A stretch of DNA of 34,685 bases from Candidatus Pacearchaeota archaeon (GTDB taxonomy: Archaea; Nanobdellota; Nanobdellia; Pacearchaeales; GW2011-AR1): contig JAFCDM010000001.1 in NCBI GenBank assembly GCA_017609695.1, positions 1-34,685 of the forward strand. Direction: 5' to 3'. The notes under the pieces are model-generated. The model was not told where the DNA came from and searched no databases. It worked only from the letters and a program-made list of their open reading frames with translations. The translations under genes and the position numbers were made by a program. The first letter of the stretch is position 1; every line of letters starts with the position of its first letter. Below, one piece after another: positions 1-14,412 of this stretch.

Positions 1-111
1 TAAATTTATATTAAATCTCTTTAAAAATACCTTAAATTTTGATTTTAAGGGGTTTAGAATCAATTATTTTTTATTATTTAATAGTTTTAATTTGAATTTT
101 TTTATTTTTTT

Positions 112-240
112 ATAGGAAATTGGGGGGTTTATTTTTAAAAAACCTTTATAAATATTCTTATTTTTGTTGTCTATAAAAAAATTTTTCCATAGGAAATAGA
201 GGTATTTTAAAAAAAACCTAAACCGAAAAGTATATAAATT
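112..240. promoter_or_regulatory. Non-coding terminal region with two diverged tandem modules (ATAGGAAAT-NGRGG ... TTTTAAAAAACCT ... TATA-like)
   Basis: 112-156 (ataggaaattggggggtttatttttaaaaaacctttataaatatt) and 189-240 (ataggaaatagaggtattttaaaaaaaacctaaaccgaaaagtatataaatt) share order and spacing of sub-motifs. No ORF covers 1-259. Confidence 0.5.
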
Positions 241-256
241 ATGTTTATGTATTGTT

Positions 257-361
257 TATATGAAAGAAGAAATAAATGCTCAAGATTTAATTGATTGGAT
301 TTCAGAAGAAGAAATTAAAAAAAAGAAAATAAATTTAAAACTTGCAGAAAGAGAAATAAAA
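257..361. repeat. Left arm of a 105-bp perfect inverted repeat (partner 34581-34685); candidate inverted terminal repeat
   Basis: The reverse complement of 34581-34685 equals 257-361 base for base (tatatgaaagaagaaataaatgctc...cttgcagaaagagaaataaaa). Identity stops at 362/34580. Confidence 0.95.
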
Positions 362-472
362 AATAATTTTAAAAAAGAGTTTGGAATGTCTTGTAAAAAA
401 TTAATTAAAAAATTGAAAAAGCCAGAGAACAAATTTATTTTAGACAGGTTAAAAAATGAAAAAATTAAATAA
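260..472 (+). CDS. Hypothetical Lys/Glu-rich protein; codons 1-34 lie inside the inverted repeat
   Basis: ATG ORF of 70 aa. A TATA-like tatataaatt (231-240) lies 20-29 nt upstream. The N-terminal 34 aa are duplicated at the right end. Confidence 0.5.
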   Translation: MKEEINAQDLIDWISEEEIKKKKINLKLAEREIKNNFKKEFGMSCKKLIKKLKKPENKFILDRLKNEKIK

Positions 473-614
473 ACCAAAAATAACAATAAAAGAGCTTGTT
501 ATTGAAAAAGAAGTAACAAAAGCAAGTGAAAGTGGTGGGCATGTTTTATTGCCAAAAGAATTAATAGGAAAAATTGTTGTTATAAAGTATGTTGATAAAA
601 AAAATAAAATTTAA
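456..614 (+). CDS. Small AbrB/SpoVT-like (DUF2080-like) DNA-binding protein candidate
   Basis: Hand translation gives 52 aa: MKKLNKPKITIKELVIEKEVTKASESGGHVLLPKELIGKIVVIKYVDKKNKI. The G-x-H-V-x-L-P-K-E-x-I-G-K-x-V pattern is typical of the swapped-hairpin AbrB-like fold. The ORF is below the ORF-track size cutoff. Confidence 0.4.
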   Translation: MKKLNKPKITIKELVIEKEVTKASESGGHVLLPKELIGKIVVIKYVDKKNKI

Positions 615-726
615 TTTTGGTTGTGGAAAAAATATTAAAGAAGGCTATGATAATTTAGATAAAATTGATTTTGACTTTAATAAATTTCCATATCCAATTG
701 AAGATAGTGAATTTAAATTAAGGTAA
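589..726 (+). pseudogene. N-terminal remnant of a class I SAM-dependent methyltransferase (about 45 codons, then stop)
   Basis: Translation is MLIKKIKFNFGCGKNIKEGYDNLDKIDFDFNKFPYPIEDSEFKLR*. It contains the GCG SAM-binding motif I and the following NLD...FPYP..D segment. The rest of the Rossmann fold is missing. Confidence 0.4.
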
Positions 727-1609
727 TATTAAAATGAAAACAAAAAATGCACAAGAAATAATTGATGAAGTTATTGAAGATTTAAAAAAAATAAAAAAGG
801 ATACAAAGAAAATATTAAAAGACATAAAAAATGATTAAAGAAATTTTACTACAATGCAAAATAGATATTATTAATTTAATAAAAAATACTTTTTCTTTTT
901 CAATAAAACTACTCCCAATTCTTTTAATTGATATGATTATTATAAAAAAAATAGATAAATATGAGGATGGAAGAGGTTTTGGATTTTTAGGATTCAAAAT
1001 TTTTAATATGATACCATGAGAAAAATAATTACAATAAATGTTGAAAGTGAAACTGAAGAGAACGAAATCCTTTTTGGATTTTTAGAATTTGTTAAAAACA
1101 ATTTTTTTAATTTAAAAGATTTAAAGATAAGTGTCACAGGAAAAGATAAAACAGTATATTATCCAGATAAAAAAAATGAAAATAGAAATATTAAGTAAAA
1201 ATACCATAAAAAGAATTATAAAAAAAGAGATTAATAAATCACTTAAAGATATTTATAAAGATTTAAATAATTTAAGAAAAAAAATGATTTTGATTGAAGA
1301 TGAGGTTAATTTATTATGAAAATGTTAATGATAATTGGGAAAGTTAAAGATTGTATTAAAATAACTGAAGGTCTTGTAAAAAGGCATGGAAATATAACTC
1401 TTGATAATTTTTTAAAAAAATATGAAAAAGAGGTTATAATTTTGTCATGAAAAAAGGAATAGTGGCAATTGCAATAACAGAAAAAGGAATAGCTACAAAA
1501 AGGAATATTAAAAATATAAATTCATCCCAATTTTTTCAATTGATTATAGAACTTGAATTATTAAAAGAAGATTTATTAGAAGAATATAAAAAAAATAGGA
1601 AAAAATCAA

Positions 1610-2194
1610 ATGGTTGAAGTTTTATCTCCAAGAATAAAAGAAATCATTTCTTATGAAAAACCAAAAATAGACATAGGTTTAATAAAAAGAAAATCAAATA
1701 GTAAAACTTTCAGAGGGTATCTTAATGGTTGTATACAAAAAGCAATCAAAGATAAAAACAGAGAATTAGAATTTCTTTTTAAAGAAATTCTAAACAAATT
1801 TAATAAATTTTATCCAAATAAGGTTGTTTTAACAGAAATTGAAATAGTTGAAGGGTGGCAAAGTATAGATAGTTTAGAAATATTTAAGGGATTTACAAAT
1901 GATTTTATCATTAAACAACATCTAAAGGACAAAAAAACAGGTCAGGTTAGAACTACAACCCATCAAATTTCAAAAATAAAGGTCAACACGCTACTTTCAT
2001 GGATAAAACGGTGGAAAGTGGGGGAATCTCATAAATGTTACGATTTTGCCATTAATTTGGGTTATTCTGGATGGAAAGAGTTATGGAAAGAAAGAAAAGA
2101 GTATTTTGAACTATATTATTACCCAATCAAAATTTTAGAAGCATTAAACTTAATTGATTATAGTGGGAGAGGAAAAATAACTAGGTTAAGATGA
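1610..2194 (+). CDS. Hypothetical protein (194 aa)
   Basis: Long ATG ORF on the dominant coding strand, overlapping the next gene by ATGA. I recognise no motif. Confidence 0.5.
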   Translation: MVEVLSPRIKEIISYEKPKIDIGLIKRKSNSKTFRGYLNGCIQKAIKDKNRELEFLFKEILNKFNKFYPNKVVLTEIEIVEGWQSIDSLEIFKGFTNDFIIKQHLKDKKTGQVRTTTHQISKIKVNTLLSWIKRWKVGESHKCYDFAINLGYSGWKELWKERKEYFELYYYPIKILEALNLIDYSGRGKITRLR

Positions 2195-2538
2195 AATTTT
2201 ATAAAGAAAAAAAATATCAAGAATACCTAAAAAATTTTTTTAAAATTATAACCGTGTTTATCTTCTTGGATGTTTTTTCAACATTTTTATTTGTTAGACA
2301 AGATGGAATCTTTGCAGAGGGAAATTTTATTGGAAGGTTTATTCTTCTTTCTTTTGGGGGTTATTCTTATCTCTTTTTATTTTTAGTTTCATTCTTTGCC
2401 CATTTATTAGTTTATTCTTTTATGTATTGTCTTTTAAAAAACAGAGAAGATTTTAAAGAAATGATGTTTTATTATCTTGGAATAATAAGTGGAATTTATC
2501 TCTTGTGTTTATATATTAATTTTAGGAGTTTATTTTAA
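2191..2538 (+). CDS. Polytopic membrane protein (about 4 TM segments)
   Basis: 115 aa with several hydrophobic stretches (ITVFIFLDVFSTFLFV, FILLSFGGYSYLFLFLVSFFAHLLVYSF, YYLGIISGIYLLCLYI). The start overlaps the upstream stop by ATGA. Confidence 0.55.
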   Translation: MKFYKEKKYQEYLKNFFKIITVFIFLDVFSTFLFVRQDGIFAEGNFIGRFILLSFGGYSYLFLFLVSFFAHLLVYSFMYCLLKNREDFKEMMFYYLGIISGIYLLCLYINFRSLF

Positions 2539-2634
2539 ATATTTTCACTAAACAAAATTTAAAAACAAGATTTAATATATATTTGAGGGCAAAACTTCTT
2601 GTAAGATATTGCCTTTCCAATTATTTTAATAAAA

Positions 2635-2778
2635 ATGAAAAAAAAATGTTGTATATGTGGAAAAAAGGCATCTGCAATAATTCAAACAAAATATTATTGT
2701 TTCACATGTTCTTGGAAAGCATCACAAAAATTTAAGTTAGAATTTAAAAAACCAAATAAAATAAAAAATTATACTTAA
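2635..2778 (+). CDS. Zn-ribbon mini-protein
   Basis: Hand translation gives 47 aa: MKKKCCICGKKASAIIQTKYYCFTCSWKAS..., with CxxC...CxxC spacing. Confidence 0.45.
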   Translation: MKKKCCICGKKASAIIQTKYYCFTCSWKASQKFKLEFKKPNKIKNYT

Positions 2779-2779
2779 C

Positions 2780-2911
2780 TTGAAAAAAATAATTAAAAAA
2801 TGTCCAATTTGCAATAGAAAAGTTGTTTCTAATGAATTTGGAGAAATTAGATGTAATTTTTGTGGATGGACTAATTCTAAAAAAAAGGATTTAAAAATTA
2901 GAATTTTTTAA
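2780..2911 (+). CDS. Zn-ribbon mini-protein (TTG start)
   Basis: Translation of 43 aa: (M)KKIIKKCPICNRKVVSNEFGEIRCNFCGWTNSKKKDLKIRIF. There are two CxxC pairs. There is no in-frame ATG, so the start is uncertain. Confidence 0.4.
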   Translation: MKKIIKKCPICNRKVVSNEFGEIRCNFCGWTNSKKKDLKIRIF

Positions 2912-2934
2912 AACAATTGTTAAATTTATATATA

Positions 2935-3255
2935 TTTCCATTGGAAATAGAGGTGTTGGTGTATAACAAGGATTTTGTATAATCAACTATCTACAATTAA
3001 CAATCTACAATTAACAATCTACTATCCCTTATGAGTAAAATACTGGAATTAGTGTATAACAATATATATTATGTTATACACTTTTTAAAAAATCTTGATA
3101 TTTTAATAATAATTTAGTTTTAAAATAATAAAATAATAATAATAATTAATTGTTTAGGTAGATAGTAGATAGTTGATTGTTATACATTTTACAAGGGTAG
3201 GGTGTATTTACTTAGTAATGAAAATAAAGATTTAAATACTACCCTATACTCATAA
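2935..3255. promoter_or_regulatory. Palindromic and iterated non-coding region flanking a nearly pure A/T core; candidate replication origin or major control region
   Basis: gtgtataaca occurs at 2959-2968 and 3052-3061, with inverted copies at 3072-3081 and 3178-3186. The 14-bp tandem ctacaattaacaat x2 lies at 2991-3018. A 14-bp perfect inverted repeat pairs aatcaactatctac (2981-2994) with gtagatagttgatt (3165-3178). The A/T-only core spans about 3082-3155. Confidence 0.5.
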
Positions 3256-3263
3256 ATAACAAT

Positions 3264-3422
3264 ATGAGTGATAAAATAAAAATCTTAAAAGCAAAATGTT
3301 GTTGGTGTGGTAAGGAAATTTCTTCTTTATATGAGAATCAATTAAATTATAATTTACAAGCTCACGAAATATCTTGTAAAAAAAATCCAAAAAATAAAAA
3401 AGGTGAAGAAGAATGTCAATAA
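3264..3422 (+). CDS. Zn-finger mini-protein
   Basis: Translation of 52 aa: MSDKIKILKAKCCWCGKEISSLYENQLNYNLQAHEISCKKNPKNKKGEEECQ, a CxxC...HxxxC pattern. The ORF overlaps the next gene's start. Confidence 0.45.
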   Translation: MSDKIKILKAKCCWCGKEISSLYENQLNYNLQAHEISCKKNPKNKKGEEECQ

Positions 3423-3892
3423 AAATAACATTACCAAAACCAAATATAGATGATAAAATAAGAGAACAACAAATAAGAAAAATAATAGGTGAAGATTTTG
3501 AAAAAAAAGAGGGAATAATATCAAAGGTTTTAATTTTTACTTACCTCCATGCACCAATTTCAATCACAAGACTTACAGATGAAATACAAAATTATTACCA
3601 AATTGAATTTGATAGGGTTAAAATATTTAGAGCTGTTCAAAGATTATCAAAATTAAATGTAATGCAAATAATAAAAGTGGGGGATGTATTTTTGATGGAT
3701 GATGAGGAACTATCAAAAGAACATATAGAAATAAAAAGACAACATAAAATTTTTTTAAATAAATTATCCCCACAATTTAGGAATAGGTATAATAATATGA
3801 ATTATACATGGATTTCAAAAAATGGTGGAGAAAAATATTTAGAATGGGCTTGTAAATTAAATGGGTTTAAATATGAGGATGGAAAAAAGTAA
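3413..3892 (+). CDS. Hypothetical protein, possible winged-helix DNA-binding domain
   Basis: 159-aa ATG ORF. The segment ISITRLTDEIQNYYQIEFDRVKIFRAVQRLSKLNVMQIIKVGD resembles helix-turn-helix plus wing. This call is weak. Confidence 0.5.
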   Translation: MSIKITLPKPNIDDKIREQQIRKIIGEDFEKKEGIISKVLIFTYLHAPISITRLTDEIQNYYQIEFDRVKIFRAVQRLSKLNVMQIIKVGDVFLMDDEELSKEHIEIKRQHKIFLNKLSPQFRNRYNNMNYTWISKNGGEKYLEWACKLNGFKYEDGKK

Positions 3893-4036
3893 AATTGAGT
3901 GGACAAAAAAGCAAGAAGAAACTATAGAAAAGATGATAGAAGAATCAGAAGCAATTGGTTATGTTAATGGATATGATGACGCTATAAAAGAGGTAATAAG
4001 AGAATTAAAAATTAAATTTATAAATAAAATTGAAAA

Positions 4037-4255
4037 ATGACACTAAAATATGAAATAACAAAAACAATAAGAAAAATTAGAAAAGGAAAATTAGAATGTG
4101 ATGTTTTAAAGTTTTGTTTTATTAAAGATTGTGATAATGTTTATTATAATGGAAAGTGGGTGGATTACAAATTAAAATTAGAAGATAAAATGTTAATATC
4201 TTCGGGAATGTGTGATGATTGTTATGATAAACACACAAAGGAGATGAAATTATGA
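4037..4255 (+). CDS. Cys-rich small protein
   Basis: 72-aa ORF with 6 Cys (CDVLKFC..C...CDDC), coupled to its neighbours by ATGA overlaps at both ends. Confidence 0.5.
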   Translation: MTLKYEITKTIRKIRKGKLECDVLKFCFIKDCDNVYYNGKWVDYKLKLEDKMLISSGMCDDCYDKHTKEMKL

Positions 4256-4751
4256 AAAAAGAATTTAATTTAAGTGAAGAAATGTTTGAGATAATAAAAA
4301 AAGTTTCTCAAAGAGAAATGATGCTTACACAATGGATGAATCAGATGGAGAACAATGTAATTTGTTTAACTAAAATTGTTGGAGGTAAAAAAAGATGATT
4401 GTAGAAGTTTCAATTGGAATTGCAAATTTAATCTTGCTAATTCTAATCATTTATCAAATAGTAAAAATCAGGAGAGATAAATGATGGTCTTAGACAAAAG
4501 TTTTAATGTATTAAAAGGAGGTAGCGTAGCGATAAGATGAGAAATATTATCAAGATTGGAAAAAACAATGAAAGAAATAACTAAACAACTAAACTTAATT
4601 AAGAAAAAGTGGGGAGTTGATGCTTTTGATGATATAACTAAATTTATTTTTAAACTTTATAGAAAGATAGAAGATTTAACAATATCAAGAAATAAATGGA
4701 AAAAGAAATATGAAAAACTGCATAAGAAATAAAGGTAAGAAAGTTTTACAA

Positions 4752-4836
4752 GAAACAGGGGTGTTGATATTGGCAAATTTAATTAAATTAAGATTTAAGG
4801 AGGGTATTTTCTAGTGGAAATGAAAACCCCTGTTTC
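4752..4836. repeat. 11-bp perfect inverted repeat (gaaacaggggt / acccctgtttc) separated by 63 nt
   Basis: 4752-4762 and 4826-4836 are exact reverse complements. The sequence is G+C rich against an AT-rich background. It lies at the left border of the GC-richer methyltransferase island. Confidence 0.8.
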
Positions 4837-4873
4837 CAATAGAAAGTTCGTTGTATATCATATTAAACGAAAT

Positions 4874-4886
4874 AAAGTCCGAGACC
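4874..4886. repeat. Left copy of a 13-bp perfect inverted repeat bracketing the methyltransferase gene
   Basis: aaagtccgagacc (4874-4886) is the exact reverse complement of ggtctcggacttt (5639-5651). This copy lies 14 nt upstream of the ATG at 4901. Confidence 0.85.
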
Positions 4887-4900
4887 TACAAAGCTAAAAA

Positions 4901-5759
4901 ATGCAAACCAATGTAATTTATCAGGAAGATTGTATAGAAGGAATGAAGAAGTTACCAGACAACAGCGTAGATTTAATTATAACAGACCCTCCTTATATGA
5001 TTAGTCAAGCAGGAAAAAAAATCAGCAGAAAATCACTTTCTTCAAAATCTTGGAAAAGAGATATGGATATTAGGTTAGATTTTGGAAAGTGGGATAATTT
5101 TGAAAGCGAAGCTGATTTTTTTAAATTTACAGAGAGTTGGTTTTCAGAATGTGCAAGGGTGCTTAAACCGAAAGGTTGGATTTATATTTTCTTTGATAAA
5201 CAGAAGATTGGATACTTTGATTTATTTTTATCAAAGAAATATGGAATAAAAGGAAGAACTGTTTTTGCTTGGCTCAAATCCAATCCTGTTCCGTCTTTCC
5301 GTAAAGTTAATTGGCTTTCTGCTTTCAGAATTTGTATGGGTTGGTAGTAAAGGGGAGTGTAAACTTAAAAATTTTCTTCAGCAGAAAGAGATGTTTAATT
5401 ATATGATTACTCCAAATAAATCATCTTACGGGAAGACAAAGCACCCAACAGAAAAGCCAGAATTAGTTATTGAAAAGTTTGTGAAAACCAACTCTGTTAA
5501 AGGAGATATTGTGCTTGACCCATTTATGGGGTCTGGAACTCTTGCTGTTGTCTGTAAGAGATTAAATAGAAATTACATTGGTTTTGAGATTAACAAAGAA
5601 TATTATGATGTTGCTATAAGGAGGTTATCACAGGGAACGGTCTCGGACTTTACTCAAAATGCTTCGCATTTTGGTTCTGCTCCGCAGAACTCGTTTAATA
5701 GCGATTTAACGGCTACGGCTTCGCTTACGCCCAAATTCCCTAAGGGGAACTATCGTTAA
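4901..5759 (+). pseudogene. Beta-class (motif IV before motif I) N6-adenine/N4-cytosine DNA methyltransferase, split by a 1-nt frame disruption near 5320-5330
   Basis: ORF 4901-5347 carries VDLIITDPPY (motif IV). ORF 5265-5759, in another frame, carries HPTEKPELVIEKF and DPFMGSGT (motif I). The expected continuous sequence ...NWLSAF/EFVWVGSKG... needs one skipped base after ttc at 5322-5324. The last 40 or so codons run into a non-coding repeat element. Confidence 0.85.
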
Positions 5760-5808
5760 ATCGCAGATATTATGTTCAATAAAATAAATCGGCTTGAGGT
5801 CGTTTAAA
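5633..5808. repeat. GC-rich structured element, copy 1
   Basis: Collinear with 6164-6321. The outer stem pairs gcgatttaacg (5701-5711) with cgttaaatcgc (5754-5764). The inner hairpin pairs ttccc (5736-5740) with gggaa (5745-5749). The element ends at the RBS-like gaggt and the ATG at 5809. Confidence 0.7.
5639..5651. repeat. Right copy of the 13-bp inverted repeat bracketing the methyltransferase gene
   Basis: ggtctcggacttt lies immediately after the last conserved methyltransferase segment (...YYDVAIRRLSQG). Confidence 0.85.
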
Positions 5809-6123
5809 ATGGACATCGCTTTAAATAAAACAGAAATAGAAACAAAAAACATTTTCCTATCATTTGATAGGATAAAAAGCTTTGATGAATTGTTATCTTG
5901 TAAATTGGATGAAGTGGTTTATATGGGTGATTCAGATGAAGAATATCCAAAGCATTTTATCAAAAACCAAAGAATAGAAAAAAAGAAAATGTTTTTTAGC
6001 AAAGCAATATATTTTAAGTTAAACGACATTTTATTAGAACCCACCAAAGTTTATAGAGATAACTTTGAATCTTGTGGTTATGTTTTTTATAAACTGAAAT
6101 TACATTTGGAGGGTTCAACATGA
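5809..6123 (+). CDS. Hypothetical protein (104 aa from ATG 5809)
   Basis: ORF track 5794-6123. I prefer the ATG at 5809, which lies 7 nt after gaggt (5797-5801). I recognise no motif. Confidence 0.5.
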   Translation: MDIALNKTEIETKNIFLSFDRIKSFDELLSCKLDEVVYMGDSDEEYPKHFIKNQRIEKKKMFFSKAIYFKLNDILLEPTKVYRDNFESCGYVFYKLKLHLEGST

Positions 6124-6163
6124 CGCCGATTTATTTTACTCTTTGGGATTTCTGCCTTCGACA

Positions 6164-6321
6164 GAACCGTCTTGCAGACTATCCCTCGTTGCTATCGCAA
6201 GAACATAATATCCGTTTAACGGTTCGCTCCGTTGCACTCGCTCACCCAAATTCGCTTTCAGCGAACTTCGTTAAACTAAATATTAATCGCAATTTCATTT
6301 TCGGCTTACAGGAGGTTTACA
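6164..6321. repeat. GC-rich structured element, copy 2
   Basis: The outer stem pairs gtttaacg (6214-6221) with cgttaaac (6269-6276). The inner hairpin pairs ttcgct (6251-6256) with agcgaa (6260-6265). The element ends at aggaggt and the ATG at 6322. Confidence 0.7.
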
Positions 6322-6639
6322 ATGATAAAAAAGTTTAGAAAAAAACCAGTCGTAATAGAAGCAATACAATGGTGTGGTGATAATTTCCAAGAATTAGAAG
6401 AATTTGGAAGTCAAAGACATATCGTTTCAAATCCAGATGGAACTTTGACTATTGAAACTTTAGAAGGAAATCACACCGCACAAAAAGGCGACTGGATTAT
6501 TAGAGGAGTGCAAGGAGAAGTTTATCCTTGTAAACCAGATATATTTGAACAGACTTATGAAGAAGTCGCCGAAACTGAAACTCAAGCTTCTCCTCCGGAG
6601 AAGTCGTTTAATAAAGGTTATGAGGTAAATCAAAAATGA
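6322..6639 (+). CDS. Small conserved phage-type protein of unknown function
   Basis: Strong RBS (caggaggtttacaATG). The pattern KKPVVIEAIQW...GDWIIRG.QGEVYPCKPDIFEQTYEEV matches, from memory, a small hypothetical protein common in bacteriophage and plasmid genomes. I do not assert a family name. Confidence 0.6.
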   Translation: MIKKFRKKPVVIEAIQWCGDNFQELEEFGSQRHIVSNPDGTLTIETLEGNHTAQKGDWIIRGVQGEVYPCKPDIFEQTYEEVAETETQASPPEKSFNKGYEVNQK

Positions 6640-6704
6640 TTTACCCAAATTCAGTTGGAGATGATTAAAATAAACAAAATAAAACTACTAATTAATAATT
6701 ACAT

Positions 6705-6715
6705 AAATTTATAAA
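6705..6715 (+). promoter_or_regulatory. TATA-box-like element upstream of the RHH gene
   Basis: aaatttataaa lies 22-32 nt upstream of the ATG at 6737, which fits an archaeal-type promoter with a short or absent leader. AT-rich background makes this weak. Confidence 0.3.
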
Positions 6716-6736
6716 CAAAACAAAACAAGAGAAAAT

Positions 6737-6868
6737 ATGATAAAACAAAAATCAGTTGGGATTGAAAGTGAAATAATTAAATTAGTAAAAAAAGAAGCAA
6801 AGAAAAAAAAGAGAAGTGATAGTTATGTTATTAATGAAATATTAAAAAAACATTATAAAATAAAATGA
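6737..6868 (+). CDS. Ribbon-helix-helix (CopG/Arc-like) regulator candidate
   Basis: Hand translation gives 43 aa: MIKQKSVGIESEIIKLVKKEAKKKKRSDSYVINEILKKHYKIK, a strand-helix-helix pattern. It overlaps the downstream surface-protein gene by ATGA. Confidence 0.5.
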   Translation: MIKQKSVGIESEIIKLVKKEAKKKKRSDSYVINEILKKHYKIK

Positions 6869-8298
6869 AAAAATTAATTTTAACATTGGTAGGGTTATTT
6901 TTTATTAGTTTTATCTCTGCAAGTGTTCAACCATCAGCAGATATTTTTATTTCAGGAATACCTGAAGAAATTAATGTTGGAGATTATTTTGATATTTCAA
7001 TAGATGGAGAAAATTTACAAAATGTGTTAAGTTATAGAATAAGTTATCTTTATGATAATGATTATTTAGAAGTTGTTAATTTATTTGTTGATGGAAGTTT
7101 TTTTAATTCTCTTGGAAGTCCAATGCAATTATCTTTTAATCCAAAAGATATTGAAACAACTTCAAATTATGATTCTATTTTTAGTATTTCTAAAACACTT
7201 TCTATTTTAGATAATTCTTATTCAGGTGATGGGGTATTTGGAACAGTTAGATTTAAAGCATTAAAATCAGGAAATACAAATTTACTTTCAGATGAATTAA
7301 ATAATTCTCCATCTTGGTATAGCCAACTATTAGGTAAGGGTTTTTTTAATTCTTTTTTATATACCAATTTATCATTACCAGAATATGAAATAAAGATAAT
7401 TGGAGATGAAAATGAAACAATACCAGAAGATAATATCTGTATTCCAAATTGGGTTTTAAATACATCTGAACAATATGATGAAGGAATGATAATAAGAAAT
7501 TGGTTTGATTTAAATTATTGTAATTTAACATCACCAGAACCAATAATAGAATATGTAAATTTAACAATACAAGATAACCAAACAATAAATCAAAATGGTG
7601 TTGGAATAAAATTTGAAGTTCAAAATGAACAAGAAGGAAAAGTTCAAATAAAGAAAACAACTCAAAACAATATAAAAGAAATTGAAAGTAAAAAATTAAT
7701 ATTAATTTTAAATATAACATCAGATATTATTTTTGACAACGCTAAAATTTCTGTTCCCTATGATGAAAACGACCTTAATGGATTAGATGAAAGCACATTA
7801 AGATTTTATTACTTTAATGAATTATTAGAAGAATGGGAAGTTTTACCAACAGAATTAGACACAGTAAATAATTTAATTACTGGTTTAACAACCCACTTTT
7901 CAATTTTTGGAATATTTGGAGAAGAACTTGAAGAACCATCCACCCCAATACCTACAAGTCCAAGTAGGAATTCAAGACACCATTCAAGTTCTTCTTCTAT
8001 AACTTCAATTATAGATAATTCAGAACCAGTTGAAAAAATATGTGGTGAGTGGAAAGTTAAATGTGAAGAAAATAAATTGTATGAATGCTTAGGAAATTCT
8101 TGGATATTTAAAAAAGATTGTGAAAATGGTTGTGAGAATAATTCTTGTAAGATTATTTTAGAACCAAAAGAAACAAAACAAAATATTTTTCAAGAATATA
8201 AGGGTGTTTGGATTGTTGTTTTAATTTTAGTTATTTTAATTATTATTGGAACAATTATTGGAGTTAAGAGAACAAACAAAATTCAGAAAGTTAATTAA
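6865..8298 (+). CDS. Secreted, C-terminally TM-anchored surface protein with a cohesin-like N-terminal domain
   Basis: Sec-type signal (MKKLILTLVGLFFISFISAS). The cohesin-like signature is ...YDNDYLEVVNL...GDGVFGTVRFKALKSGNTNL. A Ser-rich linker, a 6-Cys module (CGEWKVKCEENKLYECLGNSWIFKKDCENGCENNSC) and a terminal TM helix plus basic tail follow. Confidence 0.75.
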   Translation: MKKLILTLVGLFFISFISASVQPSADIFISGIPEEINVGDYFDISIDGENLQNVLSYRISYLYDNDYLEVVNLFVDGSFFNSLGSPMQLSFNPKDIETTSNYDSIFSISKTLSILDNSYSGDGVFGTVRFKALKSGNTNLLSDELNNSPSWYSQLLGKGFFNSFLYTNLSLPEYEIKIIGDENETIPEDNICIPNWVLNTSEQYDEGMIIRNWFDLNYCNLTSPEPIIEYVNLTIQDNQTINQNGVGIKFEVQNEQEGKVQIKKTTQNNIKEIESKKLILILNITSDIIFDNAKISVPYDENDLNGLDESTLRFYYFNELLEEWEVLPTELDTVNNLITGLTTHFSIFGIFGEELEEPSTPIPTSPSRNSRHHSSSSSITSIIDNSEPVEKICGEWKVKCEENKLYECLGNSWIFKKDCENGCENNSCKIILEPKETKQNIFQEYKGVWIVVLILVILIIIGTIIGVKRTNKIQKVN

Positions 8299-8320
8299 AT
8301 GGTAATTTTATAAAAATATA

Positions 8321-8578
8321 ATGGATTATAAATCAATTTTTTCAAAAGTATTAACTTATTTTGGAGAAAAATCTTCAGAAATTTCTAATTCTATTTTAAA
8401 TAAAATATCTGAAAAATTAGGAATAGATATAATTTTATTTCAATCAAAATTATTAACTATAATCATTCTTTTAATTTTACTTTTATTATCCTTAAAGATA
8501 ACAAAAAAAACAATTAAATTTGTGTTGATAATCTTAATAGCAATATTTATTATTTCAACATTTTTGTCAATTTTTTAA
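8321..8578 (+). CDS. Small membrane protein
   Basis: 85 aa. The C-terminal half consists of two hydrophobic helices (LLTIIILLILLLLSL, FVLIILIAIFIISTFLSIF). Confidence 0.5.
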   Translation: MDYKSIFSKVLTYFGEKSSEISNSILNKISEKLGIDIILFQSKLLTIIILLILLLLSLKITKKTIKFVLIILIAIFIISTFLSIF

Positions 8579-8623
8579 AAGGTAAATATTTATAAATGGT
8601 AAAATATATATAAATTTGTGAAA

Positions 8624-10453
8624 ATGAAAAGAGTGTGTTTATTATTGGTAATTTTATTTTTTGGAATAAATTTTGTTAGTTCTACAATCACATGTGATTC
8701 AATTGAACAAATAAATGGAATCGTGGGAGAACCTATTTCTCCAATAACAATAAATTGTATAAATGATAATAATGAAACAGTAACTATTGGAAAAACAGGA
8801 GATTTTTTTACATTGTCAAATAATGAAGTATCAATGGAAACAACCCCTATAACATTAGAATTTTTTTCATTTTCAAATCCTGGAACATATTATTCTGTTT
8901 TATATTTTTCAGACGATACAACCCCCATTTCTGTAGTTATGGTTGTAGAAGATGAAGAAGAAACAATGGGATGTAGATTAATTGAATTACCACACACAAC
9001 AAATTATAGAATAAAACAAGGAGAAACAGGTTCAAGTTCACAATTAAAAATAAAAGTTTCAACAGAGTGTAAAAATTCATTAAGTATGTCTGTAACAGAG
9101 CAAACACAAATGAATAAACCAATGTATCTTCAGGGAAGTTCAGGGGATGTAAGTCCTGGAGAAGAATTTAGTTTCACAATAGGTCTTGATGCAGAAGGAG
9201 TCAATACTGGAACATATCAAAACACATACATTGTTTCTGCTACAGATGGAGATAAAATTTATAAAAAGGAAATAACTTTATTTACAATTGTAACTGTGAG
9301 TGATTCTCCTGTTGAAGAAGATACTTTTTCAGATTTACCAACTTGCTCATTGGATTCTGAAATGTCAATAAACAATACTTATTCTTTGGTTTGTCAGAAT
9401 GATAATCCAAATATTGAAATAGAAGTTCCGTATAATGAATATTTTCAAGGGGTTTCTGTTAGTGAATCAGAAGGAACATTTACTTATAAATTAAAACCAA
9501 CAAAAATAGGAATTATGAATTTAGTTGCATTATTCACATATAATGGCAATTCAATAGGAGAACCATTTTCAAAAGAAGTAAAAATTTTAAAATCATCTTC
9601 ATCTGGCTCTGGAATAGAAATGGATATTCTTTTCTACCAATTTGATAATAAAAAAGAAAAAAGTGAATTGGTTGCTGGTGATGTAACAATATTGGTTAAA
9701 GATAAAACCTCTCAAAGTATCATACCTTCTTTTACAACATATTTAAATGGAAATTTAGTAAATAATACTTTTACCATAAAAGCAAATATAAATTATGAAT
9801 TAATAGTTGATTCAGAAAATTATCTTTCTAAAACATTAAATTTTACTGTTGGAAAAAATAAATTAAGTTTAATTTTAGAACCAAATAAAGAATTTTATTT
9901 TCCAGGCGAGGTAATAAATTTTTCTTCAAATGAAGAAAACGTTAATTTTGTTGTGGGTGATGTTCTATTAACAGATAATTCATATACATTTAATTCAGAT
10001 GGAATTTTTTTAGTAAAAGCATATAAAGATGGATTTGAAACAGTAGAAAAAAATTTAACAGTAAAAAAAGAAATTTATCCAATAACAAAGACACCAGAAT
10101 TTCTAACAGATTGGAAAGTTGGAGAAAAAATAATTTGGGATTTAAATGAAAATACAACTTGGACAGTTTCATTAGCAGAAAAAATTGATGAAACTTTTGG
10201 AGAAGTTATTGTTATAACATCTGGAACAGGAGAAAGAATTAATTTTAAAATAGAAAAAGAAGGAAAATATACTATTGAAGCTGGAGATTTTACATTAGTT
10301 AGTAATTATCTTGTTGAAAAAGAAGGTTTTACAATTAAGTTTTGGAAGTGGGGATGGTATCAAGTTATTCTTTATTTAATTATATTAATATTTATATGGT
10401 TCTTTTTTCTGAGAGAATCAGAAGAAGAAACAACTCAAAAATTATCGGAATAA
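8624..10453 (+). CDS. Large secreted, TM-anchored protein (beta-rich, unknown function)
   Basis: I prefer the ATG at 8624 over the GTG at 8618. Features are a signal peptide (MKRVCLLLVILFFGINFVSS), a long Ser/Thr/Asn-rich ectodomain, and a C-terminal TM (WYQVILYLIILIFIWFFFL) with an acidic tail. Confidence 0.7.
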   Translation: MKRVCLLLVILFFGINFVSSTITCDSIEQINGIVGEPISPITINCINDNNETVTIGKTGDFFTLSNNEVSMETTPITLEFFSFSNPGTYYSVLYFSDDTTPISVVMVVEDEEETMGCRLIELPHTTNYRIKQGETGSSSQLKIKVSTECKNSLSMSVTEQTQMNKPMYLQGSSGDVSPGEEFSFTIGLDAEGVNTGTYQNTYIVSATDGDKIYKKEITLFTIVTVSDSPVEEDTFSDLPTCSLDSEMSINNTYSLVCQNDNPNIEIEVPYNEYFQGVSVSESEGTFTYKLKPTKIGIMNLVALFTYNGNSIGEPFSKEVKILKSSSSGSGIEMDILFYQFDNKKEKSELVAGDVTILVKDKTSQSIIPSFTTYLNGNLVNNTFTIKANINYELIVDSENYLSKTLNFTVGKNKLSLILEPNKEFYFPGEVINFSSNEENVNFVVGDVLLTDNSYTFNSDGIFLVKAYKDGFETVEKNLTVKKEIYPITKTPEFLTDWKVGEKIIWDLNENTTWTVSLAEKIDETFGEVIVITSGTGERINFKIEKEGKYTIEAGDFTLVSNYLVEKEGFTIKFWKWGWYQVILYLIILIFIWFFFLRESEEETTQKLSE

Positions 10454-10454
10454 G

Positions 10455-11531
10455 ATGAATCTTAAAAAAATATTTAAAATATTTGTAGGAATAAAAAAAA
10501 AGAAAAAAGCAGACAGAGTTCTAACATCTCTTAATCCAGACGAAAAAGATAATAAAGTAATAAAAGAACTATTTAAAAAAATATCCTCACAAGAACAACA
10601 ATTATCTGAAATTTCAGTTAAAAAGAAAGAAAAAGATTTAGAAAAGGAAGAATTCTTATCAGATTTAAGATTAGTTAAGGAGTTAAAAGAAAAATCAAAA
10701 AGAATAGAATCAAAAGGCAATAAAAATTTTTATGAATTATCTAAAATCTATTTTTATTTAAAAAAATATAAAAATGCTAAAATAGATATAACTGACAGAG
10801 ATGATGAGGTTGTTTTTGATTTGTTTGATAACTTTGGGTTTGTTGGAGACCAATTTGCAATAAGAGGAAAATCTGGAAAAATATGGTCTCTTGGAAAAAA
10901 TTTAAATTATGTAATCTATAAACCAGAGTCAATAAGGAATCATCTTAAAAGAAAAAAAATTCCAATACCTTATGATAAAGATTTAAAACCAGTTCCAGAT
11001 TTAGATAAAATGTTAATGGGGGAATTAAAGTATGATGGGGAAGAAGATAGTTTTAGAGAATCAGAAGAATTTGTGAGACCAATTAGAAAAATTTTTCAAG
11101 ATAAAGAAAGAAAAATATACTCTCTTTTAAAAGATAAAGAATATCACGAAAGTTTAATTATTCAATTAACAAATAATTTTAAAAAGTTAGAAAGAGAAAT
11201 AGAAGTACACAAATTAGAAGCAAAAGTTTCAAACTCTGGTTTAAGTGATGCTTTATTAAGTTTGAGAGAACTTTCAAATCAAATCGGAAATACTGTAAGA
11301 CAAAACACATTACTTGTTCACGGAAAGTTATCTTCTGATGAGATTATTGAAAAATATGAAGTTGTTTTCAAAAGACTTTTAGATGAGATGGAAGATGAAA
11401 AAGCAAAAACTGCTATTAGGAGAGCAAAAGATGAATTACATAGTGATTTACAATTTACTCAAAAGTTAGATAAAAAACCAATTGTGGTGAATGTTGAAGG
11501 AATTAAACAGGAGGAAATTAATAAAAATTGA
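10455..11531 (+). CDS. Lys/Glu-rich coiled-coil protein
   Basis: 358-aa ATG ORF starting 1 nt after the upstream stop. It has long heptad-like charged stretches at both ends and no enzymatic motif. Confidence 0.6.
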   Translation: MNLKKIFKIFVGIKKKKKADRVLTSLNPDEKDNKVIKELFKKISSQEQQLSEISVKKKEKDLEKEEFLSDLRLVKELKEKSKRIESKGNKNFYELSKIYFYLKKYKNAKIDITDRDDEVVFDLFDNFGFVGDQFAIRGKSGKIWSLGKNLNYVIYKPESIRNHLKRKKIPIPYDKDLKPVPDLDKMLMGELKYDGEEDSFRESEEFVRPIRKIFQDKERKIYSLLKDKEYHESLIIQLTNNFKKLEREIEVHKLEAKVSNSGLSDALLSLRELSNQIGNTVRQNTLLVHGKLSSDEIIEKYEVVFKRLLDEMEDEKAKTAIRRAKDELHSDLQFTQKLDKKPIVVNVEGIKQEEINKN

Positions 11532-11570
11532 GGTTACACAAGGGTAATCCTAATTATATAATATGTGCCC

Positions 11571-11645
11571 TAAGGTACCCTAAGTGAACGATAACTAAGG
11601 TACCCTAAGTGAACGATAACTAAGGTACCCTAAGTGAACGATAAC
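11571..11645. repeat. Three perfect tandem copies of a 25-bp unit (taaggtaccctaagtgaacgataac); iteron or operator candidate
   Basis: Units at 11571-11595, 11596-11620 and 11621-11645 are identical. The sub-repeat ccctaag also occurs at 11568. The array is GC-richer than its surroundings and lies 58 nt upstream of the wHTH gene at 11703. Confidence 0.95.
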
Positions 11646-11702
11646 TAGTAACATATTTTCACACCTTAAAAGGGGACTTTTCCATACACTCAAAAAAACA
11701 AA

Positions 11703-12014
11703 ATGGTAAAAAAAGATTTAAAAGATATAAAATTTTTAAAAATATTGAAAATTCTTTATTTAGAAGGAAAACCAATGAGTTATAAACAACTTTCAAAAAT
11801 AACAGGGTATAGTAAATCAACAATTTATAAGTCTCTTTTATATTTAAAAAGAAGGTATTTAATAAAAAAGGAAGAAATAACATATCCTTCAATGAATGAT
11901 AAAAAGACAGGTAGATTTATAAAAGGTCACACTGGAAGAAAAAAAGGGTTTTTATATTGTATAAATGAAAATTCAATAGAGAATATAAAAAAAACGGTGG
12001 ATTGTTTAGGATGA
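11703..12014 (+). CDS. Winged-helix (MarR/ArsR-like) DNA-binding protein
   Basis: ILKILYLEGKPMSYKQLSKITGYSKSTIYKSLLYLKRRYLIKKEE is a textbook HTH plus wing arrangement. Confidence 0.6.
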   Translation: MVKKDLKDIKFLKILKILYLEGKPMSYKQLSKITGYSKSTIYKSLLYLKRRYLIKKEEITYPSMNDKKTGRFIKGHTGRKKGFLYCINENSIENIKKTVDCLG

Positions 12015-12769
12015 ATATAATTTTTCCCACAAATATTTCTGAATTAAGAGAATGTCCTTTTGATTTTCATGAATTAGAAATGAAAATAAGAAAATTTTTC
12101 TTGTGTTTACAATTTAGTGGGAAAAATGTAAGATATGAGTGTTTAGACGCAAGAAATTATTTAGATTCTGTTAGAATAAATGTAAGAAATTTAATATCTT
12201 TTGAAGAAAATAAATATGTTCAAACATATAGTAAAGCATATTTTTGGATGATTGAAAATCTTGGAAGAGTTGATTTAAAATTAGATGAAATTGAAGAAGA
12301 ATTTGATAGGCTTGAAAAAACAGAAAATCATAACCATATTGATTTAAGTAAGAGTCACATAATAAGAAAGTACATAAACTCTTTGTTAGTAGTTTTTGAG
12401 CATCTTGTTTATCACCCATTAAAAAATTCCTTAAAAAAGTTTAAAAAAGACACATTTATAGATGGAAAAATAGTTGAAAAAGATTATAATTTATTTGCTT
12501 ATTACCTTTTTTTTGAGTTAAAAAATTCTTCAGAATCATTAGGGGCAATATCTTCAATAACTAAAAGTACTCCCCAAAGAAAAGGAGAATCAATAACTTA
12601 TAATCAATATGCTTCAAAAGACGATGCAGACCAATATTCTATTCCAGAACTTCCAAAAAATATTAAAGTAAAAGAACATATTAAAGTAAAAGAACAAAAA
12701 GAGGAAGATAAAAATAAATTAGAAATTCAAGAAGAATTATTTGAAGATGAAGATGAGGATGAAATTTAA
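12011..12769 (+). CDS. Hypothetical protein with a poly-acidic C-terminus
   Basis: The ATG at 12011 overlaps the upstream TGA (ATGA). The ORF track starts at the TTG at 12002. The protein ends ...EELFEDEDEDEI. Confidence 0.55.
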   Translation: MNIIFPTNISELRECPFDFHELEMKIRKFFLCLQFSGKNVRYECLDARNYLDSVRINVRNLISFEENKYVQTYSKAYFWMIENLGRVDLKLDEIEEEFDRLEKTENHNHIDLSKSHIIRKYINSLLVVFEHLVYHPLKNSLKKFKKDTFIDGKIVEKDYNLFAYYLFFELKNSSESLGAISSITKSTPQRKGESITYNQYASKDDADQYSIPELPKNIKVKEHIKVKEQKEEDKNKLEIQEELFEDEDEDEI

Positions 12770-13070
12770 AAATATATTTAAAAAGAAAAAAAGAAATATA
12801 TTTGTTAATAATTTAATTGGGGTTGTTGAATTAACAGATGTGGCTATGGAAAATGGGGTGGATGATAAGTTTAATAAAATAATAAAGATTTTTGAGGGGG
12901 TTAAAAAAGAAGGGAATGAAATAATTTGGGGAAAATTAATAGAAGAAATTCCTTATTCTAAAGAAGCAGTAATTAGTTTAGAAGAAGTAAAAAAAATTCC
13001 AATTGTATTCAAAAAACAAATTTATGTTGATTTTCTTGAAGAAGAATTTACAGGAGGTATTATAAATTGA
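12741..13070 (+). CDS. Hypothetical protein (start uncertain: 12741 to 12759)
   Basis: The ORF overlaps the end of the previous gene and has several candidate in-frame ATGs. Confidence 0.4.
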   Translation: MKMKMRMKFKNIFKKKKRNIFVNNLIGVVELTDVAMENGVDDKFNKIIKIFEGVKKEGNEIIWGKLIEEIPYSKEAVISLEEVKKIPIVFKKQIYVDFLEEEFTGGIIN

Positions 13071-13468
13071 ATAAAATTTTATTAACTAAAGGAAGATTTT
13101 TATTTGTTGAAAATAATTGCCCATATTGTGCAATTGCAAAAAAATCTACTTTAAAGATAAATAATCTTTTGCCATTAAATAAAAGAATCATAATAAAAGA
13201 TTGTACAAATTTAGGTAAATTTGGAATTTATGGGGATAACATAATAAAAGAATATTCTGATTATTTAGATGGATACCCAACACTTTTTTTAGGAATGCAC
13301 AAAAAAGTAGGTGCAAGTAGCATTATAGAATATACTGCCTGGTTAAAAGCAAAATTAAGAAAAGAATTGATAATTCAACAAGGGAACGAATATTTACCAA
13401 ATATAAATAAGTATGCTTTGTTTGATTTGGAGTGTAAACATAAAAAAGGGAGGTTAGTTTGTAATTAA
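13067..13468 (+). CDS. Thioredoxin-fold protein with a glutaredoxin-type CPYC active site
   Basis: FVENNCPYCAIAKK (CPYC) followed by GYPTLF (cis-Pro loop). The TTG start overlaps the upstream TGA (TTGA). The next in-frame ATG lies beyond the active site. Confidence 0.6.
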   Translation: MNKILLTKGRFLFVENNCPYCAIAKKSTLKINNLLPLNKRIIIKDCTNLGKFGIYGDNIIKEYSDYLDGYPTLFLGMHKKVGASSIIEYTAWLKAKLRKELIIQQGNEYLPNINKYALFDLECKHKKGRLVCN

Positions 13469-13469
13469 A

Positions 13470-13706
13470 ATGGCAAAAGAGAAAAATATGGGATTTAGAT
13501 GTGACTATAATGAAGATGGTTCAAAAGTTTGTAAAAGATATAAAAAGAAAGGCGGGGAAAAATATGGAACAGGAACGAATGCAAATTTTGTTGTTGATGA
13601 AAAGACATGTAGGGTTAGGATTATTGGGGATATTGATGATTCAGATAGGGAATCAGTTGAAAAAGTAGCAGAAGAAATTGAAAATAAATGTAGGAAGGGA
13701 TTTTGA
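13470..13706 (+). CDS. Small Cys-containing charged protein
   Basis: 78-aa ATG ORF starting 2 nt after the upstream stop, with 4 Cys. Confidence 0.5.
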   Translation: MAKEKNMGFRCDYNEDGSKVCKRYKKKGGEKYGTGTNANFVVDEKTCRVRIIGDIDDSDRESVEKVAEEIENKCRKGF

Positions 13707-13782
13707 ATGGAATGGTGGATTTATTTAATAAGTGGAATAATAATTTGGAGAATAATAATGGTAATTAGATATTCCAAAGAAG

Positions 13783-14211
13783 ATGAATCATTTACAAAAA
13801 AGTTTAAAAGATTTGCTTGTGGAAAATCTTACACAAGGTGTTGATATGAAAAAAATAAAAAAAGATAAATTAATAGAAAAAGATAAAGGATTTGTAGATG
13901 ATTCCATAGTTGGAATTATTAATTTAATTCATGGACAAATACATGCAGAATTACAATATATTCAAACAAAGGATGAAATTTGGCTTAAAATAGCTGAAGG
14001 ATGTCGTGGGGATAGAACAGAATTAATGGATTTAATTGTTGAAGGAAAAAATGAAGAATGGTGTTGGTGTAAACATTGTTTAGCATGGATAGGCATTTAT
14101 ATGGAATTGGGTTCAAGATGTTTAAGTGCAAAAGATTATAAATTAGGAGAATATTATTATAATAAGGCAGGTAAATGGTTATCTGTCTTTTATGAATTAA
14201 ATAATTTATAG
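13783..14211 (+). CDS. Hypothetical protein
   Basis: 142-aa ORF containing a CWCKHC cluster. The start is uncertain (alternative ATG at 13846). A small TM ORF from 13707 overlaps its 5' end. Confidence 0.45.
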   Translation: MNHLQKSLKDLLVENLTQGVDMKKIKKDKLIEKDKGFVDDSIVGIINLIHGQIHAELQYIQTKDEIWLKIAEGCRGDRTELMDLIVEGKNEEWCWCKHCLAWIGIYMELGSRCLSAKDYKLGEYYYNKAGKWLSVFYELNNL

Positions 14212-14219
14212 GGGGAAAA

Positions 14220-14411: not shown

Positions 14412-14412
14412 A

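Follow-up and report, generated by a model that had tools for sequence, protein, structure and literature searches.

Chromosomal replication origins of the archaeal oriC1 type, described in Pyrococcus (PMC1904270) and Sulfolobus (PMC12141716) and reviewed in PMC4010727, bring together origin recognition boxes (ORBs), A/T-rich DNA and a neighbouring orc1/cdc6 initiator gene. The Sulfolobus oriC1 also needs a non-ORB motif, ucm, which is bound by a separate small protein, UBP, limited to the Sulfolobales and Desulfurococcales (PMC12141716); among mobile elements, haloarchaeal viruses and plasmids carry an orc1/cdc6 gene of their own with adjacent ORBs (PMC3528665; for SNJ2 Orc1, PMC10123103). 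The locus considered here lies in a 34,685-bp stretch of DNA (the window; contig JAFCDM010000001.1, a Candidatus Pacearchaeota assembly), a densely coding element of 26% G+C. We propose, with moderate confidence, that positions 2876-3263 form the main non-coding control region of a virus-like element of about 35 kb belonging to DPANN archaea, and that this region is most likely its replication origin, or at least an initiator-binding site, using the initiator of the host. The locus is best seen as a control region that combines a host ORB with element-specific repeat arrays, on a virus-like element lacking an initiator.

The repeats themselves had been pointed out in an earlier note on this DNA, in which the cluster at 2959-3186 was taken for a candidate internal origin; the four copies of (g)tgtataaca, the 14-bp tandem repeat, the 14-bp inverted repeat and the atctac/gtagat sub-repeats that it listed are all present as reported, and the stretch at about 3082-3155 is indeed almost pure A/T (94.6%). 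The cluster is held in the longest gap of the element free of open reading frames (ORFs), 2912-3263. On both strands of the window TGTATAACA occurs four times, always within the cluster (boxes A1 to A4, Table 1); the 14-bp unit CTACAATTAACAAT stands in two tandem copies at 2991-3018, and AATCAACTATCTAC (2981-2994) is perfectly complementary over 14 bp to 3165-3178. The atctac repeats (ATCTAC at 2989, 3003 and 3017, GTAGAT at 3158 and 3165) sit in a 7-bp register, which has six units in the left-hand array and three, inverted, in the right-hand one; these units are referred to here as B boxes. Locally recurring 9-mers, direct or inverted, cover 153 of 230 nt, the maximum of all segments of that length in the element, as against a mean of 45 (standard deviation 26, maximum 133) in 1000 Markov shuffles (P<0.001). 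By nearest-neighbour energy, only one other 100-bp stretch is less stable than 3056-3155 (-0.946 kcal/bp; mean -1.151, standard deviation 0.064), and 2950-3200 folds as single-stranded DNA with z = -3.41, none of 200 shuffles folding as well. Boxes A and B are confined to this locus within the element, no other promoter of which has them, and they are missing from all host oriC loci compared by blastn-short; on both counts, the (g)tgtataaca and atctac repeats are not recognisable as the origin recognition boxes for which they had been taken.

The proposal of an internal origin is nevertheless strengthened by an element that had been missed, a host-type ORB, TTCCATTGGAAATAGAGGT at 2936-2954, located 5 bp before the start of the repeat cluster; what does not stand is the mechanism that had been attached to it. 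A repeat scan of the whole window returned a 26-nt direct repeat family that led to two ORB copies, at 2936-2954 and 185-203, both matching the ORBs of DPANN oriCs at 18-19 of 19 positions. The dyad is similar to the mini-ORB of Pyrococcus, TTCCAGTGGAACT, which was defined by experiment and whose invariant TTCC and GAA (PMC1904270) are retained in the window ORB. Because of this resemblance, 185,579 species genomes (one genome per species) were scanned with TTCYATWGGAAAYAGRGGT, a pattern derived from the window's own copies. The scan gave 85 matching stretches in total, and taxonomy was read for the 80 matches listed, among which 36 are archaeal, mostly Woese-, Pace-, Nano-, Aenigm- and Micrarchaeota. 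Archaea account for only about 5% of GTDB species. Further degenerate copies, often inverted, are found nearby at the archaeal loci but not at the bacterial ones (mean 1.86 versus 1.05 copies); Orc1/Cdc6 is the gene adjoining the ORB in all ten host loci tested with Pfam, and it is encoded inside the 8-kb locus in 21 of the 36 archaeal cases (tblastn). On these sequence comparisons, the 19-mer is the origin recognition box of archaeal, mostly DPANN, chromosomes, an assignment to which the archaeal enrichment, the extra copies and the Orc1/Cdc6 neighbours all lead. At one Pacearchaeota locus (L077, 1083-3105) the ORF immediately downstream of the ORB encodes 669 aa, and its N-terminus, judged by eye, looks like MCM and not like orc1.

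A position weight matrix (PWM) built from 63 host copies, for which 100 shuffles gave a 95th percentile of 14.0 bits and a maximum of 20.4, finds six sites in the window, all intergenic and all within its first 5 kb. At eight host loci where the ORBs form inverted pairs, the two TTCC ends point toward one another across 77-726 bp with an A/T fraction of 0.72-0.94, and host A/T enrichment is limited to the DNA between such pairs: the notion that more A/T always lies on the TTCC side of host ORBs is untrue on average (0.715 versus 0.709 over 35 loci). The G-rich end of a host ORB typically points into orc1, 13-145 bp away, and lineage-specific short tandem repeats stand beside the ORBs of host oriCs too (for example L028, L009 and L047). 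The window ORB at 2936-2954 has A/T-rich DNA on both flanks; if host geometry is followed, the expected unwinding element would be the 90% A/T tract at 2876-2935, to the left of the ORB, inside which a TATA-like TTTATATA is located (2926-2933). In blastn-short comparisons of ORB-bearing regions, the similarity between window and host oriCs is confined to the ORB itself, and the capture of a larger host oriC fragment is thus rejected.

In comparison with archaeal oriC1-type origins, the locus has ORBs that match those of DPANN oriCs (19/19 and 18/19), and it likewise has adjacent A/T DNA, short tandem repeats beside the ORB and an ORB abutting a promoter; as in Pyrococcus, several ORB clusters lie within 5 kb. 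Unlike such origins, it belongs to a virus-like element and not to a chromosome, the element has no orc1/cdc6, the ORB is single and has no inverted partner, the A/T core is on the G-rich side, and nested inverted A/B arrays are added. Of the traits that define this family the locus lacks three, namely an ORB pair in inverted orientation, a neighbouring orc1 and a switch in skew, and it is therefore not classed as a canonical ORB/Orc1 origin. The haloarchaeal viruses and plasmids are likewise mobile elements using Orc1/ORB logic; they encode the initiator beside the origin, whereas the window element encodes none and copies the host ORB. With ucm and UBP of Sulfolobus the locus has only a concept in common, that of an accessory non-ORB motif in or beside the unwinding element, and there is no sequence relationship; a candidate ucm at 2973-2983 (10/11 match) is at chance level, with four matches against 2.9 expected. 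Iteron-plus-A/T-rich origins of plasmids and phages have short repeats beside an A/T tract and small DNA-binding proteins nearby. The direct and inverted short repeats, the adjoining A/T tract and the nearby genes for small DNA-binding proteins give the window locus the same look; however, iteron origins have at least three direct iterons of 17-22 bp by a rep gene, whereas the unit here is 7 or 14 bp and a host ORB is present. No Rep-like or O-type initiator gene flanks the locus in Pfam and PHROGs searches.

A mechanism that would fit these features begins with the binding of host Orc1/Cdc6 to the ORB at 2936-2954, as suggested by its sequence identity with the ORBs of host oriCs. One or more DNA-binding proteins encoded by the element would occupy the four A boxes (GTGTATAACA) and the heptad B boxes, the flanking Zn-ribbon proteins and a 159-aa protein encoded downstream being candidates for this role. 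The two inverted box arrays might then be brought into contact, so that the intervening A/T DNA, which melts easily, is stressed or delimited. The helicase loaded at this point could be host MCM or the element's own weakly MCM-like AAA+ protein, after which the archaeo-eukaryotic primase (AEP)-type primase of the element would prime synthesis and a host polymerase, proposed because the element encodes none, would elongate. The gene content is consistent with such a dependence on the host: neither Orc1/Cdc6 nor a DNA polymerase is found in the element, yet primase-like and MCM-like AAA+ proteins are predicted. Origin and transcriptional control probably overlap here, as TTTAAATA is the promoter element of a downstream, early-looking operon; this overlap can be likened to that at host oriCs, where the ORB abuts the orc1 promoter.

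The replication proteins of the element deserve closer scrutiny, since its AAA+ ATPase (16439-17554) had been called Orc1/Cdc6-like. This likeness is not borne out: the protein has no Pfam match at E<=0.1 and no signal of a Cdc6 lid or winged helix (Pfam Cdc6_lid, Cdc6_C), and hhalign against ten host Orc1/Cdc6 proteins gives a probability of 4.7%. An exhaustive hidden Markov model search delineates a family of 103 representatives; among 54 members, seven weakly match the MCM P-loop and none matches a Cdc6 model, and the family profile finds archaeal MCM in the PDB with E about 7e-4, around Walker A only. AlphaFold gave no usable model (predicted local distance difference test score, pLDDT, 45). 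As judged from sequence, the AAA+ protein is thus not demonstrably Orc1/Cdc6-like and appears weakly MCM-like. The PriS-like primase that had been proposed (33480-34283) is weakly supported by a LigD_Prim-Pol match (E 1.6e-4, 21.8 bits), which is below the Pfam cut-off of 27.4; DxD (DFD) and SGxKG (SGSKGFQ) motifs are visible by eye in the translation, and a PDB sequence search with this candidate gave no match. Orc1/Cdc6 was not found in the window by tblastn with five host proteins or by Pfam on all ORFs of at least 100 aa, and the Pfam scans agree with the earlier observation that no polymerase is encoded.

Some evidence for the function of the boxes comes from relatives of the element. A second sample has an identical copy of 235-4150 (L002), in a contig that starts at window position 235. 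The element is contained in sample JGI 3300033148, and relatives occur in SRR20309465, ERZ1292632 and ERZ1292629. A more informative relative (L003) encodes a 159-aa protein 77% identical to that of the window, and its sequence starts inside the A/T core: the right-hand box unit GTAGATAGTTGATnGTTATACA is retained at 21 of 22 positions, preceded by A/T-only DNA of a different sequence, and the promoter AAAGATTTAAATA is exactly conserved between conserved TAGGGTG/ACCCTA arms. The Zn-ribbon gene that follows the promoter is more diverged than the boxes. That the boxes were kept while the adjacent coding DNA diverged argues that they may be protein-binding sites under selection, on the strength of one relative covering half of the locus and with modest statistics. 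A more distant relative of 37.6 kb (L004, ENA contig Hain_H43_01um_R2_690) comes from the 0.1-um fraction of Hainich groundwater, an origin that points to ultra-small DPANN hosts. The candidate equivalents of the locus at L004 17350-17741 and window 14957-15254 are both coding and were discarded. The AAA+ gene of L004 is preceded, within 9378-12300, by a gene with a diadenylate-cyclase (DAC) domain and followed by a gene of the IS605 OrfB/TnpB type that is missing from the window. No relatives were found in IMG/VR with the AAA+ protein, the AAA+ alignment or the 159-aa alignment, in JGI metagenome contigs with the 159-aa alignment or the conserved 21-mer, in GTDB genomes with the 159-aa alignment, or in INPHARED with the AAA+ protein. 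The ORFs at the two ends of the window likewise had no record, and a homology search with the partial L004 protein gave no match. A search of IMG/VR for the palindrome GTGTATAACA-N6-14-TGTTATACAC gave a single match (L001), in an unrelated bacterial phage of about 40% GC.

Several observations weigh against an origin that uses the host initiator at this locus. The ORB here is a single site on the + strand with no partner within 1.7 kb, the nearest sites being 2.7 kb away on the left and 1.8 kb away on the right, and no orc1/cdc6 gene is adjacent; a functional Sulfolobus oriC1 requires both inverted ORBs (PMC12141716). The architecture of origin boxes flanking an unwinding element, which had been read into the cluster, does not agree with the host arrangement either: host A/T DNA lies between facing TTCC ends, whereas the large A/T core is on the G-rich side of the ORB, 128 bp away. 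Over 2-4 kb the GC skew takes values of +0.28, +0.19 and +0.28, and its cumulative curve climbs without reversal as far as 16 kb; there is thus no inflection near 3 kb, which was the first of the findings that the earlier note had named as speaking against its proposal, although skew is positive on both sides, tracks gene orientation with sign changes only at gene-strand switches, and is a weakly informative test for a small, co-directionally transcribed genome. The portion of L004 examined (1,902-23,065 of 37,575 bp) has neither an ORB nor a similar repeat cluster, and the PWM detects no ORB in the scanned portions of L003-L006. No box-binding protein was identified, the AlphaFold models of the AAA+ and 159-aa proteins both being of low confidence. 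Furthermore, other places in the element look origin-like, namely the left end, 4715-4847, 17724-17823 and 11570-11647, and a 105-nt inverted repeat hints that the genome may be linear and that its replication might begin at the termini.

The left end has two direct ORBs (32.5 and 18.2 bits, within 1-209) after a tract of 87% A/T. Positions 257-361, from the start of ORF 260, are the exact reverse complement (105 nt, 100%) of 34581-34685, at the contig end; as the repeat reaches that end, the genome may be linear with terminal inverted repeats, possibly with the right side shortened by 256 nt, or the repeat may be an assembly effect. The 4715-4847 cluster is intergenic, precedes the methylase gene, and includes a convergent pair of sites as well as an inverted dyad at 4809-4821. 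Two inverted dyads in this cluster share the G/C string TTCTAGTGGAAATGAAAACCCCTGTTTCCAATAGAA, an arrangement that recurs on viral contigs of IMG/VR. The least stable DNA of the element, 17724-17823, falls in the divergent gap (17720-17903) between the AAA+ operon and the structural genes, a gap with a 17-bp tandem repeat of about 2.6 copies, TATA-like in sequence, and a perfect 15-bp inverted repeat (17823-17837 and 17851-17865). At 11570-11647, three perfect tandem copies of a 25-bp unit (CTAAGGTACCCTAAGTGAACGATAA) stand just upstream of a 103-aa winged-helix gene (11703-12014) whose product weakly matches a 'replication initiation O-like' family of PHROGs, in an iteron-like layout; the equivalent gap of L004 is only about 30 bp long.

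These considerations raise the question as to whether the locus serves something other than initiation by host Orc1/Cdc6, and four alternatives were weighed, with probabilities that overlap in part with each other and with that of the favoured reading. Under purely transcriptional control, a rather unlikely reading, the A/B boxes would be operator or activator sites for a regulator of the element (a Zn-ribbon protein or the 159-aa protein) acting on the promoter at 3231 and the operon at 3264, the ORB would only couple expression to host Orc1/Cdc6, as it does at the orc1 promoter of hosts, and replication would start elsewhere. The locus does lie between co-directional small genes, and the consensus archaeal TATA TTTAAATA (3231-3238), situated 25 nt ahead of the leaderless ATG at 3264, comes with a conserved inverted repeat and with preceding B'/A' boxes that are conserved as well. 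A host ORB stands 13-145 bp upstream of orc1 with its G-rich end toward the gene, a TATA box and then the leaderless ATG of ORF 260 come after the ORB at 185-203 in the same layout as a host ORB-orc1 promoter, GC skew shows no inflection, and the unrelated phage L001 has the identical 10-nt palindrome arms right after a repressor-like gene. However, no gene lies within 310 bp downstream of the ORB at 2936, the boxes recur at no other promoter of the element, and a simple operator leaves unexplained a 74-bp tract of 95% A/T between inverted arrays 135-165 bp apart; promoter and origin functions can, moreover, coexist. A decidedly unlikely alternative places the origin at the left end or terminal repeat, or in the A/T-rich divergent region at 17.7 kb, and makes the present locus a secondary Orc1-binding site, a partition centromere, or a resolution/recombination or packaging site. 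The ORBs of the left end would suit it, all the more if the repeat runs to the ends, since joined or hairpin ends would then place them in the inverted geometry of host origins, and so would the unstable DNA at 17.7 kb, with its tandem repeats and perfect hairpin at a gene-orientation switch. The 10-10-10 palindrome at 3052-3081, which we take to resemble a recombinase core site, counts in the same direction, and Pyrococcus provides the precedent of two separate ORB clusters within 5 kb (PMC1904270). Yet the strongest ORB and the densest repeats are at the 3-kb locus, the 17.7-kb region has no ORB in the PWM scan, the terminal-repeat model rests on a truncated right contig end, and no integrase, recombinase, ParA or terminase was found in the Pfam and PHROGs scans of the window proteins.

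The mechanism first put forward for the cluster, in which the element's AAA+ protein (16439-17554) acts as an Orc1/Cdc6-like initiator on (g)tgtataaca boxes and melts the A/T core, is very improbable. The geometry of inverted boxes bracketing an A/T core would fit it, box A4 and the neighbouring B boxes are conserved in L003, and the AAA+ family exists and co-occurs in relatives; but the protein has no Cdc6 lid or winged-helix signal, its affinities are weak and to the MCM P-loop only, its gene is 13 kb away, and a genuine ORB for the host initiator next door makes an element-encoded initiator unnecessary. Least probable, by a small step further, is a small non-coding RNA, or transcription through the origin, starting at about 2956 from the TATA-like TTTATATA (2926-2933) and ending at the palindrome and TTTTT (3052-3086). 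The TATA-like box is indeed placed about 26 nt before 2956, and the T5 that follows the hairpin is the only run of at least five T within the gap, but Rfam gives no match at gathering score over the whole window (best sub-threshold match in 2700-3500, E = 0.15), the RNA fold of 2956-3090 is non-significant (z = -1.36), comparative support is nil, and the supposed TATA is equally explained as the A/T-rich flank of an ORB, as at host loci.

Host-type ORBs on viral DNA that lacks an initiator gene are not restricted to the window. When IMG/VR was scanned with the ORB motif, ORB clusters were found on about 17 contigs, none of which has Orc1/Cdc6 in the DNA examined. Ten unrelated uncultivated contigs (L094, L097, L110, L111, L113, L115-L117, L120 and L122) hold clusters of 2-6 ORBs, often as convergent pairs; the clusters are mostly 0.4-1 kb from an ORF of about 420-460 aa, and several are close to contig ends. 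This ORF is the large terminase in all five contigs tested (L094, L111, L113, L117 and L120), and L094 and L113 also gave portal matches. These tailed-virus contigs thus resemble the window in having host-type ORBs without orc1/cdc6; they differ from it in being head-tailed and in having tight clusters by the terminase, and they share no replication or structural proteins with the window element, the sole match being a 28%-identical stretch with L094. Collections of cultured phages, viruses and plasmids gave only chance-level partial matches to the ORB, and no publication describing host-type ORBs on archaeal viruses without orc1 came up in full-text literature searches; in the Aeropyrum virus AGV1, ORBs were sought and none was found (preprint 10.1101/2021.04.21.440749).

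As to the element at large, nearly all genes from 260 to 16,189 are on the + strand, and Pfam together with PHROGs recognises few of the proteins: a split N4/N6 DNA methylase, an Rce1-like protease, lectin and immunoglobulin domains, and helix-turn-helix proteins. No capsid, integrase, polymerase or Orc1/Cdc6 was detected among the window proteins in these scans. For the 159-aa protein, AlphaFold gave a model of poor quality (pLDDT 50) with which Foldseek returned nothing below E = 0.5, the top-ranked MarR/Fur-type winged-helix proteins being non-significant. The methylase (4901-5759) is split into overlapping ORFs in different frames, 4901-5347 and 5265-5759, that cover the N- and C-terminal parts of the Pfam model, which may reflect a frameshift, a pseudogene or a sequencing error. 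Two adjacent genes for large surface proteins share an identical 79-nt start encoding the signal peptide (25057-25135 and 27425-27503), tandem modules of 141 nt at 25240-26000 encode 'YCNNSGGSWSC' repeats, and blocks of 176-226 nt are duplicated inside proteins of 583 and 1097 aa (28988-31441), which suggests a modular, recombining, adhesin-like cassette. A 606-aa membrane protein (20132-21952, +) is homologous over its full length to a protein of L004 (4906-6720, -; 25% identity, E 2e-18); the L004 homologue carries Pfam Fsx1 and HAP2-GCS1, the window protein itself has no Pfam match, and through this homology it is considered an archaeal fusexin-like fusogen. Published Fsx1 genes reside in integrated mobile elements of other archaea (PMC9259645); the fusexin gene described here sits in a virus-like element that probably infects DPANN archaea. 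A common motif, an A-run plus C(C)TAAACCGAAAA, precedes both ORF 260 (217-228) and ORF 17904 (17866-17877) and is possibly a shared promoter or leader element.

Table 1. Coordinates of the control region, ORB sites and relevant genes in the 34,685-bp window
Feature	Position	Strand	Remarks
A/T-rich tract	2876-2935	.	90% A+T; TTCC side of ORB; overlaps 3' end of Zn-ribbon ORF 2780-2911
Host-type ORB, TTCCATTGGAAATAGAGGT	2936-2954	+	PWM site 2933-2960, 36.7 bits, strongest of the element
Box A1, GTGTATAACA	2959-2968	+	Directly 3' of ORB; may belong to a long ORB, cf. host locus L055
Heptad-phased B-box array, AATCAAC TATCTAC AATTAAC AATCTAC AATTAAC AATCTAC	2981-3022	+	
Box A2, GTGTATAACA	3052-3061	+	Left palindrome arm
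A2/A3 palindrome, 10-10-10, GTGTATAACA - ATATATATTA - TGTTATACAC	3052-3081	.	Followed by TTTTT, 3082-3086
Box A3, TGTTATACAC	3072-3081	-	Reverse complement of GTGTATAACA; right palindrome arm
A/T core	3082-3155	.	94.6% A+T (70/74); most A/T-rich 74-mer of the window
Right-hand array of inverted B boxes (GTAGATA GTAGATA GTTGATT) and box A4	3158-3186	-	Fused to A4
Box A4, TGTTATACA	3178-3186	-	9-mer of the reverse complement; fused to inverted B boxes
Archaeal-type promoter	3197-3246	+	TATA TTTAAATA at 3231-3238; flanked by inverted repeat GGGTAG / CTACCC
ORB	105-132	+	18.2 bits; direct orientation with 182-209
ORB	182-209	+	32.5 bits; 185-203 is TTCCATAGGAAATAGAGGT, 19/19 to DPANN consensus
ORB-like site	4715-4742	+	12.8 bits
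ORB-like site	4741-4768	+	16.2 bits
ORB-like site	4820-4847	-	26.4 bits
Second upstream Zn-ribbon ORF	2635-2778		Candidate DNA binder
Zn-ribbon ORF, 43 aa (CPIC...CNFC)	2780-2911	+	Upstream of the region; candidate DNA binder
Zn-ribbon ORF, 52 aa	3264-3422	+	Directly downstream; candidate binder
159-aa helical protein	3413-3892	+	Downstream; 77% identical in L003; candidate binder
AAA+ ATPase	16439-17554	-	Weakly MCM-P-loop-like; possible helicase of the element
Putative archaeo-eukaryotic (AEP/PrimPol-type) primase	33480-34283	-	Weak LigD_Prim-Pol Pfam match

Almost nothing is known about the replication of DPANN viruses and mobile elements, and no such system has been cultured. A host-identical ORB on an element without an initiator gene provides a testable handle in this respect, as it predicts that Orc1/Cdc6 is hijacked and narrows the host to lineages sharing the ORB. 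In the A/B boxes peculiar to it, the element would have an accessory origin module or regulatory module of a new kind, and a search with the ORB motif is a simple route to origins in uncultivated archaeal viruses. As a tentative generalisation, which we regard as possible but on the unlikely side, archaeal viruses without an initiator of their own may commonly copy the host ORB to capture host Orc1/Cdc6, the single ORB and the virus-specific inverted arrays around an A/T tract making up, in the present element, a hybrid origin gated by a viral protein. If this were true, host-ORB mimicry would be a general, sequence-readable signature, from which the origin of an uncultivated archaeal virus could be predicted as well as its host range.

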